A DNA stretch of 5,964 nucleotides from a virus. Its lineage: Duplodnaviria; Heunggongvirae; Uroviricota; Caudoviricetes. Both the position numbers and the translations under genes were made by a program. The stretch lies in the IMG/VR virus record IMGVR_UViG_2740892423_000011. One strand, given 5' to 3'. Of this stretch, positions 1-5,964 are shown piece after piece. Numbering within the stretch: position 1 is the first letter of the stretch; each line of letters opens with the position of its first letter. The notes below the pieces were generated by a model. The model was not told the origin of the DNA and did not search any database. It saw only the letters and a program-made list of their open reading frames with translations.

Positions 1-697
1 GCCTTAATGGGCCGATATCACCGTTTTCGCCCTGACCTTCACTGGTAGGGATAAGGTGCAGGAACTCTTCCGAACGACGAAAAATCAGGCCAAAGGCTTC
101 GTTGAAAATCCTCAGCGCATTAACACCACGGATTTTCAGCTCCCCGGTCATGGTGTCACCATCACGCTGAACGGCATTTTTTGCCTTGTCCATCGTGGGT
201 TTTAATCCGAGGTTTTCAACAGCCTCATCCTTATCTTCCACATCCGAAAGATTCCTGTCCTGTCGCAGAAACAGACCATCCCCGGTTGCCACATTCAGCA
301 TGACCTGCGCACTTTCTGCCACTGCCAGCCGGAACTGCAGTGTGGCTGTCACACCGTTTTCCGGTTTCTCAATGGCTGCACAACTTCCGACGGCATAAAG
401 CACACCATCGGTGGTCAGCAGCCCCGCTTCCCTGACCGTAAATCCCCCCGCGCCCTCCGGCAGTACAAGATACGCAATAAACTGGTTTTCCTGATCAGGC
501 GATACCGTCAAACGTGAGATGGTGCCGCGATAAACTTCCCTGACCAGCGCCGTCTGCCCTGCCTCTGGTGTGACAGCATTTCCGTTCCCGTCCCCCACAA
601 CAAACCCGTCCAGCACCACCGGTGCACCACGCGCCGCAGACGCAGCCTCCAGCGCCTTTCCCCTGTTTGTCAGAATACTGCAATGTTTCGTGGTCAC
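1..697 (-). CDS. Tail fiber protein, N-terminal portion (P2 gpH-like); 3' end lies beyond the window start
   Basis: Not in the ORF track because there is no stop inside the window. Manual minus-strand translation from GTG at 697..695 (GGAG 6 nt upstream; alternative TTG at 715..713) is open for 232 codons to the window edge. It begins VTTKHCSILTNRGKALEAASAARGAPVVLDGFVVGDGNGNAVTPEAGQTALVREVYRG and later contains LVLPEGAGGFTVREAGLL and NAVQRDGDTMTGEL. These resemble the conserved N-terminal baseplate-attachment region of P2 gpH as recalled from memory. It sits immediately downstream of gpI, the canonical position. Confidence 0.7.
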   Translation of the reverse strand, partial: MTTKHCSILTNRGKALEAASAARGAPVVLDGFVVGDGNGNAVTPEAGQTALVREVYRGTISRLTVSPDQENQFIAYLVLPEGAGGFTVREAGLLTTDGVLYAVGSCAAIEKPENGVTATLQFRLAVAESAQVMLNVATGDGLFLRQDRNLSDVEDKDEAVENLGLKPTMDKAKNAVQRDGDTMTGELKIRGVNALRIFNEAFGLIFRRSEEFLHLIPTSEGQGENGDIGPLR

Positions 698-698
698 G

Positions 699-1259
699 TT
701 ATTCTCCCGCCTCAATCACCACATCAATATGCGCAGTCACCGCGCCACCAACATAAAACTGGCTGTCCTTTCCGATATCCGTATTTACGTCAATGGTGCT
801 CAGACCGCTGCGTAAATTCTTGGCCTTAATGACCAGCGCCCTGACCTGACTGTAAAGCACACTGTCAGCACCTTCCCGCAAAAACAGCTCCACACGAAAG
901 GTGTACGGTTTTTTGCGCGGTGAATCCTGCCACCACTCTTTGATTGCTGCCGGAACACCAACCGCACCAAGCGCCCGCAGCACTGCCCCCGCCGTTCCCC
1001 GGTGCTGATGCACATATGCCGCATCACGTAAAATTTGCCGCTTCTGCTCTTCACTCCAGTCATCCTGCCAGAAATCCACAGCAAACTCCCAGGCCAGCAT
1101 CGGCAACAGATGCGATGGACAGGTGTCGGGGTTCTTCACCTTTCTGACCATATCCGTATCAAGCGTCAGGATGCTTTCTGTTGTGGCCTGCTCCTGTACC
1201 CGCTCCGGCCTGACAGCGGAAGGCGGCAGAAGTGAGCGATACGTCTCCGCCATCATCAC
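699..1259 (-). CDS. Baseplate assembly protein, P2 gpI-like (tail protein I family)
   Basis: 186-codon ORF from the track. Its GTG start at 1259..1257 overlaps the gpJ TGA stop, with in-frame ATGs at 1256 and 1253 preceded by AAGAGG. Size matches P2 gpI (~176 aa) and it lies between the gpJ-like and tail-fiber genes. The translation contains MLAWEFAVDFW, which I associate with tail protein I. Confidence 0.78.
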   Translation of the reverse strand: MMMAETYRSLLPPSAVRPERVQEQATTESILTLDTDMVRKVKNPDTCPSHLLPMLAWEFAVDFWQDDWSEEQKRQILRDAAYVHQHRGTAGAVLRALGAVGVPAAIKEWWQDSPRKKPYTFRVELFLREGADSVLYSQVRALVIKAKNLRSGLSTIDVNTDIGKDSQFYVGGAVTAHIDVVIEAGE

Positions 1260-2161
1260 ACCTCTTTACGCGTCACATTAACAGCGGCACAACGGGGAGC
1301 CGTACCGGTTGCCGGTTCAATATCAGCCCGGGGACTGGACAGAATAACCCGCGCCACACCAGTCTGTTGCAGTGCGGCGTAAATGGCGGACAGCGGCACC
1401 ATGCCATTAATCCGATTTGCCAGCCGGGTATAAGACAGCAGCGTGTTTTTTGCATTCTCCAGCACTTCACCAGCATCCGGACCGTCCGGTATTTCCAGCT
1501 CAGCCGTCACGGAATAGTCATTAATAATGGCGCTTTTCACCGTCACAAAATCCGTCAGCGGACGAATTTCATCAGCATTCAGCCGCGCACTGACCGCGTC
1601 CAGCAACGCCTCGCTGGCAGCGCCATTTCCTTCACGGGACAACACGTAGACATCCACCTCCCCCGCTCGCCCGTGCTCTTCCGGACCACAGGCATCAGCA
1701 TCCAGTACATCTTCATCAGCAGAACGGGCATGAAAACGATAGGCATTGCGGGCACCTGCGGTATTCAGTTGCGACCAGGACAACTGGATGCGTTCGCGAA
1801 AAGCATCGTCCTCTTCCATAATCGCATCCGTCGGAGGCACGGCATCCGGATTTGCCGGAACAACCACCATACGTTCGACATTGAACGTCGCACCAATCTG
1901 ATCGAGATCGGCCTTCTGTGCACTTGCCAGAAAAACAGCCCGCACGGCATCATTCACCCGCTGAAAAGCCAGGGTAAGCTGAAAGGCTGTCACTTCGCCC
2001 TGCTTGTAAACCGGGTCGGATTCCACCAGTGCATCAAATTCAGGATCCAGTTCGCGCAGACGTGCCAGCCAGGCCCCGAAAATCACCGACGCATCAGGCA
2101 CCACGATGGCATCCGGTACGGGCAAATCCGAAAGATTGATCACATCATAACTTTCTGCCAT
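1256..2161 (-). CDS. Baseplate assembly protein J (P2 gpJ-like, Baseplate_J family)
   Basis: 301-codon ORF; P2 gpJ is ~302 aa. Conserved-looking segments include INLSDLPVPD, RVNDAVRAVFLASA, NAYRFHARSADEDV, YVLSREGNGAASE, IRPLTDFVTVKSA and VPLSAIYAAL, which parallel P2 gpJ as recalled. The ATG at 2161 overlaps the gpW 3' end by 17 nt. Confidence 0.85.
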   Translation of the reverse strand: MAESYDVINLSDLPVPDAIVVPDASVIFGAWLARLRELDPEFDALVESDPVYKQGEVTAFQLTLAFQRVNDAVRAVFLASAQKADLDQIGATFNVERMVVVPANPDAVPPTDAIMEEDDAFRERIQLSWSQLNTAGARNAYRFHARSADEDVLDADACGPEEHGRAGEVDVYVLSREGNGAASEALLDAVSARLNADEIRPLTDFVTVKSAIINDYSVTAELEIPDGPDAGEVLENAKNTLLSYTRLANRINGMVPLSAIYAALQQTGVARVILSSPRADIEPATGTAPRCAAVNVTRKEV

Positions 2162-2498
2162 AAACGGTTATTCCTCCTGTTGACACCTGTGTACCGGTTT
2201 CCGTATTCGTCCCCGTGATATCCACCACGCACCCGGTCTCATCTTCCGGAAACGTTACGATCACTTTTGACACTTTCAGCCGGGGTTCCCAGCGCGCCAG
2301 CGCCGTCGCCGTGGCAGCAATTATGCGCAGCCTCAGCAGGTCATCCCGGGGAGAGTCCAGCAATTCAAAAAGATCGCTGCCGTAATCCCTGACCAGAACA
2401 CGGCTTCCCACTGGCGTGTTCAGAATATCGCTGACTGACTGGCGCAGATGCGCCGCACCGGACAGGCGCTTCCCCGTCCGGCAGTTCACACCATTCAT
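2145..2498 (-). CDS. Baseplate wedge protein W (P2 gpW-like, GPW/gp25 family)
   Basis: 117-codon ORF; P2 gpW is ~115 aa. The motif DILNTPVGSRVLVRDYGS parallels P2 gpW DILRTPVGSRVMRRDYGS (from memory). The ATG at 2498 lies 2 nt after the gpD TAA stop (2501..2503). Confidence 0.85.
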   Translation of the reverse strand: MNGVNCRTGKRLSGAAHLRQSVSDILNTPVGSRVLVRDYGSDLFELLDSPRDDLLRLRIIAATATALARWEPRLKVSKVIVTFPEDETGCVVDITGTNTETGTQVSTGGITVYGRKL

Positions 2499-2500
2499 GA

Positions 2501-3688
2501 TTATTTTTTTCCTGATCCGGTACCAAAATAATCCGGCGGCGTTTTATCACCGGATTTTTTGCTTTTGATTTCAGCCACCAGATTAAACGTGAAGGTAAAG
2601 CCTGAAGAAGAGAGGGAAAACGCCAGTGACTCCACGAGCCAGCGGCGATCTTCCCGCTTACCAAATCCGGATGTCACCACGCCGGATTCGGCGGTCATGG
2701 CAACATATGAAGGACGGCACGGCCCTGTCAGCGTCATTTTCCGGCTGTTGCGTTGCGCCTGTGTTTTTTTTGACTTTGCCTGTTGTTCAGCCGTTTCCTT
2801 TTCCGGCTGCGTGTACGGACTGGTTACAGACGAGCCGTCATGCTCCACGGTTGCTGTTTTGGTTCGCCCGTCAGCCTTGTCAAAATAACGAACCGTGATT
2901 TTTTCTTTCTTCTTTTTTTTCTCACCACTGCCAACAGAACTTCCCCGTTCACCTTCCTGATAATTCCAGGATGACACCACGGAAGGTGTCAGCGTCACGG
3001 TCCTAAGGGGCGCACCCGATACGGTGGTTCCGGCACCCTGCTCCAGAAACAACCAGTAACCTCCGGCAGGTTTGCTGACGGCGTTATACGTCCGGGCAAG
3101 GCGGGATAACAGGCTGGCATCCGATTCTGCCACCTGATCAACATGGGGAATGCGGATCCCCGCCAGCTTCTCCGCCACCCGGGCCTTCAGTCCGTTTTCC
3201 GTGGCAACGGTTTTCACCAGATCACCCAGCGTGAGATTGTCCCAGCTTCGTGTTTTCTGATTCAGCACATCACCGGACTGCTTTTCCGCATTCATGGGAG
3301 CTGCGGTAGCATAAATTTCGATCCGGCGTGGCGGGCCGCTGCTGCTCACGCCGCACACCACAAACCAGCCCTTGTCCACCAGATTACCGTTAAACCCCAG
3401 CGCCACCCGCAGACGCGCCCCCTTTGTCGGCAGGGGCAGCGTTTCAGAAAGCAGCGTGATTTTCAGTTCATCAGACCTGGCGGTGGCTCCGCCGTAATCC
3501 GTCAGGGTGATATCCACAAGATAACGGGCCAGCACCCGCGTGATATCCCACCCTTCAGCTGTCACCCGATACGCCGGGCAGAATTCCCGGACGGTCGTGG
3601 CAATGGTTTCCTGTTTTTTCTCACTGTTCAGGGACTCCTGATACGCAGCATTTATCGCCTGCAGCTGTTCTGATAATGACGTCATCAT
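2501..3688 (-). CDS. Tail hub / late control protein D (P2 gpD-like), intact copy
   Basis: The track ORF is 2501..3706 from a GTG inside the gpX 3' end. The start is more likely the ATG at 3688 or 3685 (MMTSLSEQ), preceded by GGGAGGAG. Length (~395 aa) matches P2 gpD (387 aa). LAGIRIPHVDQ parallels P2 LAGIKIPHIDQ, and a lysine-rich linker GEKKKKKEK mirrors the K-rich segment of P2 gpD (both from memory). Confidence 0.8.
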   Translation of the reverse strand: MMTSLSEQLQAINAAYQESLNSEKKQETIATTVREFCPAYRVTAEGWDITRVLARYLVDITLTDYGGATARSDELKITLLSETLPLPTKGARLRVALGFNGNLVDKGWFVVCGVSSSGPPRRIEIYATAAPMNAEKQSGDVLNQKTRSWDNLTLGDLVKTVATENGLKARVAEKLAGIRIPHVDQVAESDASLLSRLARTYNAVSKPAGGYWLFLEQGAGTTVSGAPLRTVTLTPSVVSSWNYQEGERGSSVGSGEKKKKKEKITVRYFDKADGRTKTATVEHDGSSVTSPYTQPEKETAEQQAKSKKTQAQRNSRKMTLTGPCRPSYVAMTAESGVVTSGFGKREDRRWLVESLAFSLSSSGFTFTFNLVAEIKSKKSGDKTPPDYFGTGSGKK

Positions 3689-3881
3689 CTCCTCCCTTAA
3701 TCCCACAGGCTGTATGGCGACTCAGACACCTGTTGTGTGATTTCAGGCAACACAATGCGGATCCCCGCCGGATAAACCGCCCCCTTATCTGCCAGCCCCT
3801 GATTGGCCTCCAGCACAAGAGTGAGCACGGCAGACAGATTTTCCGTGCCGTAATGCGTGGCGCAAATCGCATCAAGCACAT
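2943..3881. repeat. Direct repeat copy A (~939 bp), covering the gpD 5' region plus gpX 3' region
   Basis: By-eye alignment at a constant offset of 963 nt to 3906..4844: about 30 substitutions and no indels (~97% identity). Copy A ends exactly at the N run. Confidence 0.9.
3697..3881 (-). CDS. Tail protein X (P2 gpX-like), copy A; N-terminal ~11 codons lost in the assembly gap
   Basis: Open frame from the gap edge to TAA at 3697..3699, translating VLDAICATHYGTENLSAVLTLVLEANQGLADKGAVYPAGIRIVLPEITQQVSESPYSLWD. This is near-identical to the intact copy B at 4660..4875. The track ORF 3697..3915 spans the N run and is a chimera. Confidence 0.6.
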
Positions 3882-3891
3882 NNNNNNNNNN
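3882..3891. other. Run of 10 N: scaffold or assembly gap of unknown true length
   Basis: Ten consecutive n characters seen directly in the sequence; 10 or 100 N is a common placeholder for unsized gaps. Confidence 0.95.
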
Positions 3892-4651
3892 CTCCGGTAG
3901 AGCTCCCCCGTTCACCTTCCTGATAATTCCAGGATGACACCACGGAAGGTGTCAGCGTCACGGTCCTAAGGGGCGCGCCCGATACGGTGGTTCCGGCACC
4001 CTGCTCCAGAAACAACCAGTAACCTCCGGCAGGTTTACTGACGGCGTTATACGTCCGGGCAAGGCGGGACAACAGGCTGGCATCCGATTCTGCCACCTGA
4101 TCCACATGGGTAATGCGGATCCCCGCCAGCTTCTCCGCCACCCGGGCCTTCAGTCCGTTTTCCGTGGCAACAGTTTTCACCAGATCACCCAGCGTGAGAT
4201 TATCCCAGCTTCGTGTTTTCTGATTCAGCACGTCGCCGGACTGCTTTTCCGCATTCATGGGGGCAGCAGTAGCATAAATTTCGATCCGACGCGGCGGGCC
4301 GCTGCTGCTCACGCCGCACACCACAAACCAGCCCTTGTCCACCAGATTACCGTTAAACCCCAGCGCCACCCGCAGACGTGCCCCCTTTGTCGGCAGGGGC
4401 AGTCTTTCAGAAAGCAGCGTGATCTTCAGTTCATCAGACCTGGCGGTGGCTCCGCCGTAATCCGTCAGGGTGATATCCACAAGATAACGGGCCAGCACCC
4501 GCGTGATATCCCGCCCTTCAGCTGTCACCCGATACGCCGGGCAGAATTCCCGGACAGTCGTGGCGATGGTTTCCTGTTTTTTCTCATTTTTCAGGGACGC
4601 CTGATACGCGGCATTTATTGCCTGCAGCTGTTCTGATAATGACGTCATCAT
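3892..4651 (-). CDS. Second copy of the gpD-like N-terminal region (~254 codons), 3'-truncated at the N gap
   Basis: Minus-strand frame MMTSLSEQLQAINAAYQASLKNEKKQ ... NYQEGERGSSTG runs into the N run. It is ~97% identical in nucleotides to 2943..3688 of the intact gpD, with about 6 amino-acid differences across the shared region (E to A, N to K, S to N, W to R, T to R, P to T). The ATG at 4651 has the same GGGAGGAG context. Confidence 0.6.
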
Positions 4652-4844
4652 CTCCTCCCTTAATCCCACAGGCTGTATGGCGACTCAGACACCTGTTGTG
4701 TGATTTCAGGCAACGCAATGCGGATCCCCGCCGGATAAACCGCGCCTTTCTCTGCCAGCCCCTGATTGGCCTCCAGCACAAGAGTGAGCACGGCAGACAG
4801 ATTTTCCGTGCCGTAATGCGTGGCGCAAATCGCATCAAGCACAT
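3906..4844. repeat. Direct repeat copy B (~939 bp), partner of 2943..3881
   Basis: Same alignment as copy A. Similarity starts 14 nt after the N run and ends at 4844 (acat), after which copy B continues into unique gpX N-terminal and gpU sequence. Confidence 0.9.
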
Positions 4845-4875
4845 CCCCGTCACGGGTTATCCAGATCGTCGGCAT
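4660..4875 (-). CDS. Tail protein X (P2 gpX-like, LysM-like), intact copy B
   Basis: 71-codon ORF; P2 gpX is 67 aa. MPTIWITRDGDVLDAICATHYG ... PYSLWD parallels P2 gpX MKTFALQGDTLDAICVRYYG ... NLWE (from memory). The ATG at 4875 overlaps the gpU 3' end, and its TAA stop at 4660..4662 lies just before the gpD copy-B start. Confidence 0.8.
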   Translation of the reverse strand: MPTIWITRDGDVLDAICATHYGTENLSAVLTLVLEANQGLAEKGAVYPAGIRIALPEITQQVSESPYSLWD

Positions 4876-5329
4876 AATGTTTCAGCTCCAGACTCCACTT
4901 TTTGTTACGGTGCCCACCGCCAGGCAAAAAACGGTCGGTGGAATCAGAAAAACGCTCCACCACCCACCATCCCAGCACATCACCTTCTCCGCTGACCAGC
5001 AGTTGCGGCTCAGCCTTATTCGCCAGGTCATACAGCGTGTTCACCGCCTCCGTCCCCGACTTCCCCAAAAAGGCGTGCGATTCCCCTTCAAGGCGAACGG
5101 TTCGCCCGTTCTTCCCGGTGTACTGCAGCAGACTCTGCTGACCGATGCGCGCCTGCTCGCTCCAGGTCCACCCCGCCTCACGGGTCAGCTGGTTATATGC
5201 CGTGGTATCCACGGAAAAGGCGAAATCCCCCAGCATCAGCATGACTCTGGCATCTGCAGCACCACGGAGATAACTGTTGTCACGCTGAAGGCTGTCTTCA
5301 GCGAGAGCAATAACCGAACCCACACTCAC
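4850..5329 (-). CDS. Tail protein U (P2 gpU-like)
   Basis: The track ORF is 4850..5350 (GTG start). I prefer the in-frame GTG at 5329..5327, which overlaps the tape-measure TGA (5326..5328) as GTGA and has GGAGGA about 9 nt upstream, giving ~159 aa (P2 gpU is ~159 aa). Later ATGs at 5242 and 5236 (MLMLGDF) are alternatives. The translation contains DFAFSVDTTAYNQL and LLVSGEGDVLGWWVVERF, typical of the gpU family as I recall it. Confidence 0.75.
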   Translation of the reverse strand: MSVGSVIALAEDSLQRDNSYLRGAADARVMLMLGDFAFSVDTTAYNQLTREAGWTWSEQARIGQQSLLQYTGKNGRTVRLEGESHAFLGKSGTEAVNTLYDLANKAEPQLLVSGEGDVLGWWVVERFSDSTDRFLPGGGHRNKKWSLELKHYADDLDNP

Positions 5330-5964
5330 CAGACACTTCCTCCATCCCACAACGCATTATTACCACTGAAGGTCGGGTTGTTTTTCGTCATACCGGCAAT
5401 GGCGTCCGCAATACCCTGTTCGCTCTGTCCGGGCTGCGCAACAATGTTGAAGTTATAATTCTTCACGCTGTTGTCATTCAGCTGTGCGCCGGACTGTCCG
5501 CCCTCAACAGGAATGGCCTGCACGGCAGCCTGCCATGCTCCCGCACTGGCAAAAGGATCATCCTGTTTTCCGGCAGATCCTGCCTGCGCTGCCGGCAACG
5601 AAAAATCGAACGTTTTTTCCGGCGTGAGGTAACTGTTCACCGATTCATGAAACGCATCCGTATCCACAATGCCCATAAAGCCCTTCGCGGCGTTATATTT
5701 TTCACGGACATTCTTTTCAAAATCCGGATTATTTTTCAGTTGCTCATCAAGCCAGGCATCCTGCCCGCTGTTCCGGGCCACTGTCCGGGCAGCGGTCATG
5801 TCACCACGCCCGACATACTCCAGAATCTGCTTCTGATCGCCCTGTTCATCCGGTAATAACCAGGCGAGTTTTTTGGCTACTGCAAAAATAATTTTTCCGA
5901 CAAAAATGACGCCTTCGCCGAACTTCAGGGCCGCCGGATACAGCGTGTCCCTCAGAAAAGACAC
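5326..5964 (-). CDS. Tail tape-measure protein, C-terminal portion (5' end beyond the window)
   Basis: The frame is open from the window edge (the leading M in the track is a GTG artefact of the edge) to TGA at 5326..5328. The Gly/Ala/Gln/Asn-rich C-terminus (…NNALWDGGSVW) sits immediately upstream of gpU, which is the tape-measure position in P2-like tails. Assignment is by synteny and composition only. Confidence 0.55.
   Translation of the reverse strand: MSFLRDTLYPAALKFGEGVIFVGKIIFAVAKKLAWLLPDEQGDQKQILEYVGRGDMTAARTVARNSGQDAWLDEQLKNNPDFEKNVREKYNAAKGFMGIVDTDAFHESVNSYLTPEKTFDFSLPAAQAGSAGKQDDPFASAGAWQAAVQAIPVEGGQSGAQLNDNSVKNYNFNIVAQPGQSEQGIADAIAGMTKNNPTFSGNNALWDGGSVW

Follow-up and report, generated by a model that had tools for sequence, protein, structure and literature searches.

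In bacteriophage P2, the tail genes V-W-J-I-H-G lie upstream of FI-FII-E-T-U-D, and X is found elsewhere. The window analyzed here, a stretch of 5,964 nt that makes up the entire draft record JRGD01000167.1 (GCA_000754845.1), encodes the same protein families as P2 (GpU, X, GPD, gp25/W, J, I and the tail-fibre N-terminus), but the order differs from that of P2, with U-X-D directly preceding W-J-I-H in the window as well as in its relatives. The designation as a P2-like tail locus in the initial annotation is therefore correct for the protein families, as judged by Pfam, and not for the gene order. Two versions of this module of E. coli prophages, hereafter the A-type and the B-type, are represented by the loci L008-L014 and by the prophage of strain RM10740 (NZ_CP043821.1, 1478-1494 kb), respectively. 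Both share the order V-sheath-tube-chaperone-tape measure-U-X-D-W-J-I-H and carry one X and one D, with a gpD of 399 aa (A-type) or 390 aa (B-type), compared with a hybrid of 394 aa in the window. Among the isolated phages of the phage collection, no close match was found, and the nearest ones align over short stretches, either 11% of the left contig (75% identity) or just the tail-fibre end.

The second described system concerns assemblies rather than phages. A hallmark of false heterotype duplication, according to Ko et al. (Genome Biol 2022, PMC9516828), is a gap between the members of a duplicated pair on one scaffold, together with haplotype-specific sequence in each copy. The direct repeat in the window resembles those cases in that diverged versions adjoin on one scaffold across a gap, each with version-specific sequence, and in that spurious extra gene models result. 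The published cases involve the haplotypes of diploid vertebrates, whereas the versions in this bacterial draft would derive from a pair of related prophages (or strains). On the evidence described below, we consider it highly probable that the repeat is a false (heterotype) duplication produced by scaffolding and not a biological gene duplication.

The record is a short scaffold of two contigs, and its gene calls, all on the minus strand, are backed by Pfam, with every P2-type family found passing its gathering score except the truncated D fragment. The left contig contains the N-terminal 232 codons of a gpH-like tail fibre gene that runs off the record end (2-697; PF12571 Phage_tail_fib, E = 3.8e-34), the baseplate protein gpI (699-1253; 184 aa as called in the record and supported by the gene call in L007; PF09684 Tail_P2_I, E = 1.6e-38) and the baseplate protein gpJ (1256-2161; 301 aa; PF04865 Baseplate_J, E = 2.9e-25). 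All three are A-type, the tail fibre according to its A-type alleles and gpJ being present as an exact protein in L008-L014. These are followed by the gpW/gp25 baseplate wedge protein (2145-2498; PF04965, E = 6.8e-16), the 5′ part of which lies within a B-type patch in the mosaic map, a full-length gpD of 394 aa (2501-3685; PF05954, 37.3 bits), which is an A/B hybrid in the protein alignment, and the C-terminal 61 codons of gpX cut by the contig end (3697-3881; from the ORF list and the L007 gene call at 2086-2268; PF05489). The right contig begins with the N-terminal 252 codons of a B-type gpD cut by the contig start (3892-4648; partial PF05954 match of 25.8 bits, under the cut-off, with the protein alignment and the L007 gene call at 1317-2093), and continues with a complete gpX of 71 aa (4660-4875; PF05489, E = 3.5e-15) and gpU of 159 aa (4850-5329; PF06995, E = 3.4e-30). 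The last gene, assigned by position, encodes the C-terminal 212 codons of a large protein upstream of gpU that runs off the record end (5326-5964). A Pfam search with this protein gave no hit; its counterpart in the relatives is 552 aa long and, in L008-L024, is flanked by the tail assembly chaperone and gpU, and from this position it is presumably the tape measure protein. Read literally from the gene calls and Pfam, the record is T-U-X-[D N-terminus]-gap-[X minus its N-terminus]-D-W-J-I-H, exactly as had been annotated.

In-register comparison of 2936-3881 with 3899-4844 at a fixed offset of 963 nt gave 32 mismatches in 946 positions (96.6% identity) and no indels, in agreement with the ~97% given initially; a match of this length and identity rules out chance or low complexity as the origin of the repeat. 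The sole N run in the window, 10 N at 3882-3891, separates the two copies exactly and would be the scaffolder's placeholder between the two contigs. Copy A (2917-3881), the end of the left contig, consists of an A-type arm (2917-3787) and 94 nt (3788-3881) that are identical in both types, and its final base immediately precedes the Ns. Copy B (3892-4844), the start of the right contig, consists of a B-type arm (3892-4750) and the start of a shared stretch. Homology of copy B is recognizable already from 3892, the first base past the Ns, and its first ~14 nt appear divergent because the two types differ there by a 12-nt indel and a few substitutions. The description of copy A as ending exactly at the N run and of copy B as starting right after it is confirmed. 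The repeat comprises the last 61 codons of gpX, the short interval between X and D, and an N-terminal part of gpD that amounts to ~252 codons with the annotated ATG as the start, or to 259 codons with the upstream GTG of the ORF. Hence gpX, which the heading of the initial annotation gave as duplicated, is repeated only in part.

The sequence across the junction of the two copies is absent from the record, where the N run is the only link between them. A literally correct scaffold would mean that co-resident related prophages recombined to give a real tandem X-D, with either an extra truncated N-terminal fragment of gpD (hub) or a second complete X-D pair, and we assign this a very small chance. 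The first of these forms, a genuine tandem partial duplication within one prophage, would read T-U-X-D(N-terminal ~252 codons)-junction-X(C-terminal 61 codons)-D-W. This is the order of the scaffold as written, and the junction would be hidden from inspection by the gap, but the observations on related loci and on the lineages of the copies make it less probable still.

When the two contigs were placed on the complete genome NZ_CP043821.1, the left contig (1484159-1488020) and the right contig (1483039-1485111) fell on the same strand and overlapped by 953 nt. The same colinear overlap geometry was observed on the IMG/VR contigs L003 and L004, and the two copies thus occupy the place of one locus as alternative versions of it. 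Between gpU and gpW, the X-D unit is single in all of the 23 other loci examined, which include 8 complete E. coli genomes, and is double only in JRGD01000167.1; in each of these 8 genomes there is one copy per prophage, and the gene order is U-X-D-W in all annotated relatives. An exact-pattern scan of species-representative genomes gave no match. The absence of a second unit in 23 of 23 loci argues against a tandem duplication, and the true gene order is almost certainly T-U-X-D-W-J-I-H, in which X and D each occur once.

The copies were then assigned to different lineages by their identity to external loci. The A-type loci L008-L014 match copy A at 99.89% (1 mismatch), as against ~96.1-96.2% for B-type loci such as L001 and L019. 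For copy B, the identity is 99.5-99.65% to the B-type loci L001, L003, L018, L019 and L021 and ~96.4-96.5% to the A-type. Each copy thus has its own external lineage to which it is far nearer than to the other copy, which is not what derivation of one from the other in place would give. The A arm contains 48 and the B arm ~30 informative sites, so that version-specific sequence is present in both. From these comparisons, the two copies represent two natural prophage lineages with a mutual identity of ~96%. Sequencing error is ruled out as the cause of the 32 differences, as each allele is present in an independent natural lineage. Between the copies, 24 codon differences are synonymous and 9 are nonsynonymous, a bias to be expected of two functional alleles rather than of truncated copies decaying in place. 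A tandem partial duplication accounts poorly for both results: its copies would have to match two different natural lineages at 99.5-99.9%, and synonymous changes would have to dominate though both extra fragments would be non-functional. The right contig is 99.76% identical to RM10740, and the left contig, outside its B-type patch, is about 99% identical to A-type contigs (98.65-99.32%).

Inspection of the contig ends showed that they fall at the boundaries of A/B identity. Base 3892, with which the right contig opens, is the first to be B-specific after 145 nt shared by both types. The left contig runs for 94 nt into a shared stretch of 300 nt before it ends, the last A/B difference being at 3787. 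The contig ends are thus branch points of an assembly graph. For a random breakpoint in a unit of ~950 nt, it would be a coincidence that copy B starts exactly where the B-type leaves identity. However, a de Bruijn graph breaks alike for dispersed and tandem repeats, and therefore the contig ends disfavour a duplication with arbitrary breakpoints and do not by themselves disfavour a longer tandem. Such a larger tandem duplication would have arisen when an A-type and a B-type phage recombined unequally, with the complete X and D of both types adjacent and the remainder hidden in an under-sized gap. Although this arrangement would give contig ends at these very boundaries too, it is seen in no relative, the missing parts of D and X require several hundred nucleotides in a gap written as only 10 N, and, as a general argument, the extra genome length would press on the limit of capsid capacity. 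It also leaves the B-type patch of the left contig unexplained, and we regard it as the least probable of the readings considered. The initial annotation had preferred an unmerged overlap between two related but non-identical P2-like tail loci, and the colinear overlap, the single copy in 23 of 23 loci, the separate lineages and the contig ends at points where these diverge or become identical all bear this out; it was equally justified in giving less weight to a genuine tandem duplication, in view of the single copy elsewhere, the different lineages of the copies and the predominance of synonymous divergence.

The left contig itself is mixed. An informative-site walk against the A-type L010 and the B-type L019 revealed a B-type patch at 2436-2771, with 9 B-type substitutions and a 15-nt B-type deletion, inside otherwise A-type sequence. 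Its flanks are identical in both types over 149 nt (2287-2435) and 145 nt (2772-2916), and the whole of 2287-2916 is 100% identical to RM10740 over 630 nt. The switches from A to B and back to A fall only within these identical stretches of 149 and 145 nt. As far as the sequence comparison goes, the left contig thus appears to be an A-B-A chimera, and its switching probably reflects mixing along the assembly path as well, while it could also be a natural recombinant. If both contigs belonged to a single locus with a tandem partial duplication, a mosaic of A-B-A-dup-B would be needed, which implies several independent recombination events. The 94-nt tail of the left contig prompted a model of graph nodes with k = 95, but this model fails at the outer ends of the scaffold, where the next A/B difference is 54 nt past position 5964 and the left end lies within A-specific sequence. 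The assembler and the k-mer size (k~95) therefore stay guesses.

Taking false duplication as the preferred reading, we infer that two loci were present in the sample and that the assembler behaved approximately as follows. The sequenced DNA would have held the A-type and B-type versions, ~96% identical, of one myovirus prophage tail module. Where the versions are identical beyond the read or k-mer length, the graph would merge them, and where they differ densely, two parallel arms would be kept. In the X-D region both arms would have survived, the A arm in continuity with W-J-I-H and the B arm with X-U-T. The two contigs, which in truth overlap by ~950 nt, would then be linked by read pairs from the end of the left one to the right one. 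Because of the 3.4% divergence this overlap could not be merged, and the unmerged contigs would have been written in series by the scaffolder with a minimal placeholder of 10 N. Velvet would use 10 N for any estimated distance of up to 10, negative values included; our literature search on the 10-N minimal gap in Velvet found no paper documenting it.

The most likely source of the two versions is a single E. coli genome with two prophages. Such a source is realistic, since the complete genome of E. coli NY1601 has the tail module at two distant sites (1.98 and 4.12 Mb). A mixed or contaminated culture of two strains with one prophage each would produce the same artefact and is a less likely though still appreciable possibility. 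The window fits both sources alike, as either yields two alleles in the read set. The assembly of a two-strain mixture is usually fragmented as a whole, and the record number 167 in the JRGD01 series weakly suggests the contig count of an ordinary E. coli draft; this and the documented double carriage in NY1601 speak against a mixture. A literature search for JRGD01 or GCA_000754845 found no paper mentioning either.

The repeat is biologically unimportant, since this ordinary tail cluster is already widespread among E. coli prophages; its relevance is confined to data hygiene. Two spurious gene models in the public record, fragments of gpD (258 aa) and gpX (60 aa), could, together with the 394-aa hybrid gpD, pass for gene gain, pseudogenes or a novel hub variant. 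Such artefacts can be tested for without reads by asking whether the sequence preceding a short N run recurs after it, whether both contigs overlap on a complete relative, and whether the contig ends match points where two known variants become identical.

When the hybrid gpD was aligned with the A-type (399 aa) and B-type (390 aa) proteins, it was A-type from the N-terminus through a lysine-rich tract and B-type in the C-terminus. A look-up in the collection with the longest-ORF GTG start gave no match, and with the annotated ATG start the exact 394-aa protein was recorded in this contig alone. The exact gpJ of the left contig was found in 25 collection blocks, and the exact gpU of the right contig in 1390.

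All genes in the window lie on the minus strand, and Pfam matches assign GpU (4850-5329), tail protein X (4660-4875), GPD (2501-3685), gp25/W (2145-2498), J (1256-2161), I (699-1253) and a tail-fibre N-terminus (2-697), with a GPD fragment (3892-4648) and an X fragment (3697-3881) on either side of the single N run at 3882-3891. Positions 2936-3881 (copy A) and 3899-4844 (copy B), compared in register 963 nt apart, show 32 mismatches in 946 positions (96.6%) and no indels, in agreement with the constant offset and ~97% identity of the initial annotation. As that annotation also described, copy A runs to the base directly preceding the Ns and copy B begins just after them, its homology starting at 3892; the opening bases of copy B appear divergent only through a 12-nt indel and some substitutions between the two versions. 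The repeat was said to comprise gpX and the start of gpD. This holds for gpD, whose first ~252 codons are repeated, and X is repeated in part only (its last 61 codons).

An exact-protein look-up identified the window as the complete 5964-nt record JRGD01000167.1 of the draft assembly GCA_000754845.1, in the same orientation, an accession mentioned in no paper found by our literature search. The window, being an entire draft record, is thus a short scaffold in which 10 N separate two contigs (1-3881 and 3892-5964). Alignment to the complete E. coli RM10740 chromosome (NZ_CP043821.1) places the left contig at 1484159-1488020 and the right contig, on the same strand, at 1483039-1485111, so that the two are colinear with a 953-nt overlap. 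The same geometry was found on the IMG/VR contigs L003 and L004. RM10740 is annotated with one X and one D, in the order baseplate V, sheath, tube, tail assembly protein, 552-aa protein, U, X, D, W, J, I and tail fibre. The 945-nt unit matches eight complete E. coli genomes, with a single hit in each prophage, and among all fetched loci it is present as one copy in 23 and as two only in the window's own record. The repeat is real in the record but almost certainly not a real biological feature.

The two copies belong to two natural lineages of the tail module, A-type, defined by the contigs encoding the window's exact gpJ (L008-L014), and B-type, defined by RM10740, L003, L004, L018, L019 and L021. 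Against A-type, the A arm (2917-3787) shows a single mismatch (99.89% identity), compared with ~96.1-96.2% identity against these B-type loci; for the B arm (3892-4750), identity is 99.5-99.65% with B-type and ~96.4-96.5% with A-type. Codon differences between the copies are 24 synonymous and 9 nonsynonymous, a bias that reads as the pattern of two functional alleles under selection and would not be expected if truncated D and X fragments had diverged by 3.4% in place. In having a gap between the two copies on a single scaffold and version-specific sequence in each, the locus matches published hallmarks of false heterotype duplication (PMC9516828).

We then classified every site differing between the A-type contig L010 and the B-type contig L019. 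The left contig is A at 1-2286, B at 2436-2771 (nine substitutions and a 15-nt deletion) and A again at 2917-3787, the types being identical at 2287-2435, 2772-2916 and 3788-3881; the right contig is B at 3892-4750, common to both at 4751-5050 and B at all three informative sites of 5051-5964. The right contig starts at the very first base separating B-type from A-type, past a 145-nt identical stretch, and the left contig ends 94 nt into a 300-nt one. The left contig switches type twice, both times inside identity stretches of at least 145 nt, resulting in a hybrid gpD whose N-terminus, with the longer lysine-rich tract, is A-type and whose C-terminus, with the 5-residue deletion, is B-type. 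In the collection, this 394-aa hybrid is on record in this contig only, with the exact gpJ in 25 blocks and gpU in 1390. The B-type patch reflects either a switch of paths by the assembler or natural gene conversion.

A literal tandem partial duplication in a single locus, which the initial annotation had already favoured less, is disfavoured by the single copy everywhere else, the different lineage origins of the copies and the lean toward synonymous substitutions. It would also require that copy B happen to start precisely where A and B diverge, and that one locus be an A-B-A-duplication-B mosaic. If the gap hid a larger tandem duplication, the graph would break locally in the same way, so the contig ends by themselves are compatible with this reading, but it is supported by no relative, leaves the B patch unexplained and is at odds with the minimal gap. 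Even taken together, we regard these two possibilities as highly improbable.

The unmerged overlap of related tail loci proposed in the initial annotation is supported and refined by the colinear overlap, the single copy in 23 other loci and the two lineages. The contig ends and type switches are the behaviour of an assembly graph whose reads stem from two sequences ~96% identical to each other. Stretches of identity would merge into common nodes that allow a path to switch, and densely divergent stretches would persist as two arms. At the X-D bubble both arms would have outlasted graph simplification, with W-J-I-H connected to the A arm and X-U-T to the B arm. Read pairs anchored at the left-contig end would fall in the shared X-U region, now in the right contig, and hence the scaffolder probably linked the two contigs. 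The true distance would be about -950 nt, that is, the overlap, which was presumably left unmerged behind a minimal 10-N placeholder because it is only 96.6% identical. Velvet inserts exactly 10 N for an estimated distance of 10 or less, and appends nodes without their k-1 prefix; no documentation of the 10-N convention was found in the literature. At a guess, Velvet with k = 95 would fit the right-contig start and the left-contig end, k-1 = 94 nt past the last A-specific base, but the outer scaffold ends disagree with this model.

The genome of E. coli NY1601 contains this tail module twice, at 1.98 Mb and at 4.12 Mb, and most of the tail proteins have the same accession numbers at both sites, so that two such prophages in one genome is a documented situation. 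The two versions could instead derive from a mixed culture, which we consider rather unlikely; the contig numbers of the draft look ordinary, which is weak evidence against such a mixture. The main value of this analysis is to flag the two spurious gene fragments and the chimeric gpD of the record.

The cluster is a tail module widespread in E. coli prophages and is composed of P2-family proteins in a gene order other than that of P2; no close isolated phage was found in the phage collection. In different genomes, this tail module lies downstream of either of two distinct head modules, one with a ClpP-protease/capsid fusion and a cement protein (L015, L017, L022-L024) and the other with a lambda-E-type capsid, HDPD decoration and Packaging_FI (L016, L018-L021), a swap that is classic modular phage mosaicism. 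In the related prophage L017, an IS66-family element (TnpA/TnpB/transposase, 13615-16200) breaks the tail-fibre region. The protein at the tape-measure position (window 5326-5964; 552 aa in L008-L024) has no Pfam match and is named 'hypothetical protein' or 'AAA family ATPase' in RefSeq, the latter seeming inconsistent or doubtful as a label for a tape measure.

Among L008-L024, gpD is 390, 394, 395 or 399 aa long through in-frame indels near the C-terminus (near 2560) and in a low-complexity lysine-rich tract (GEKKKKKEK; window 2890-2935), a T-rich homopolymer-like run on the plus strand whose position coincides exactly with the A/B branch point. The left contig has a private substitution at 3550, gpD codon 46 (TGG, Trp, versus CGG, Arg, in both types). 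Two IMG/VR contigs (L002 and L006) lack 72 nt near the gpD start (window 4560-4631), apparently an in-frame 24-codon deletion in the gpD N-terminus.
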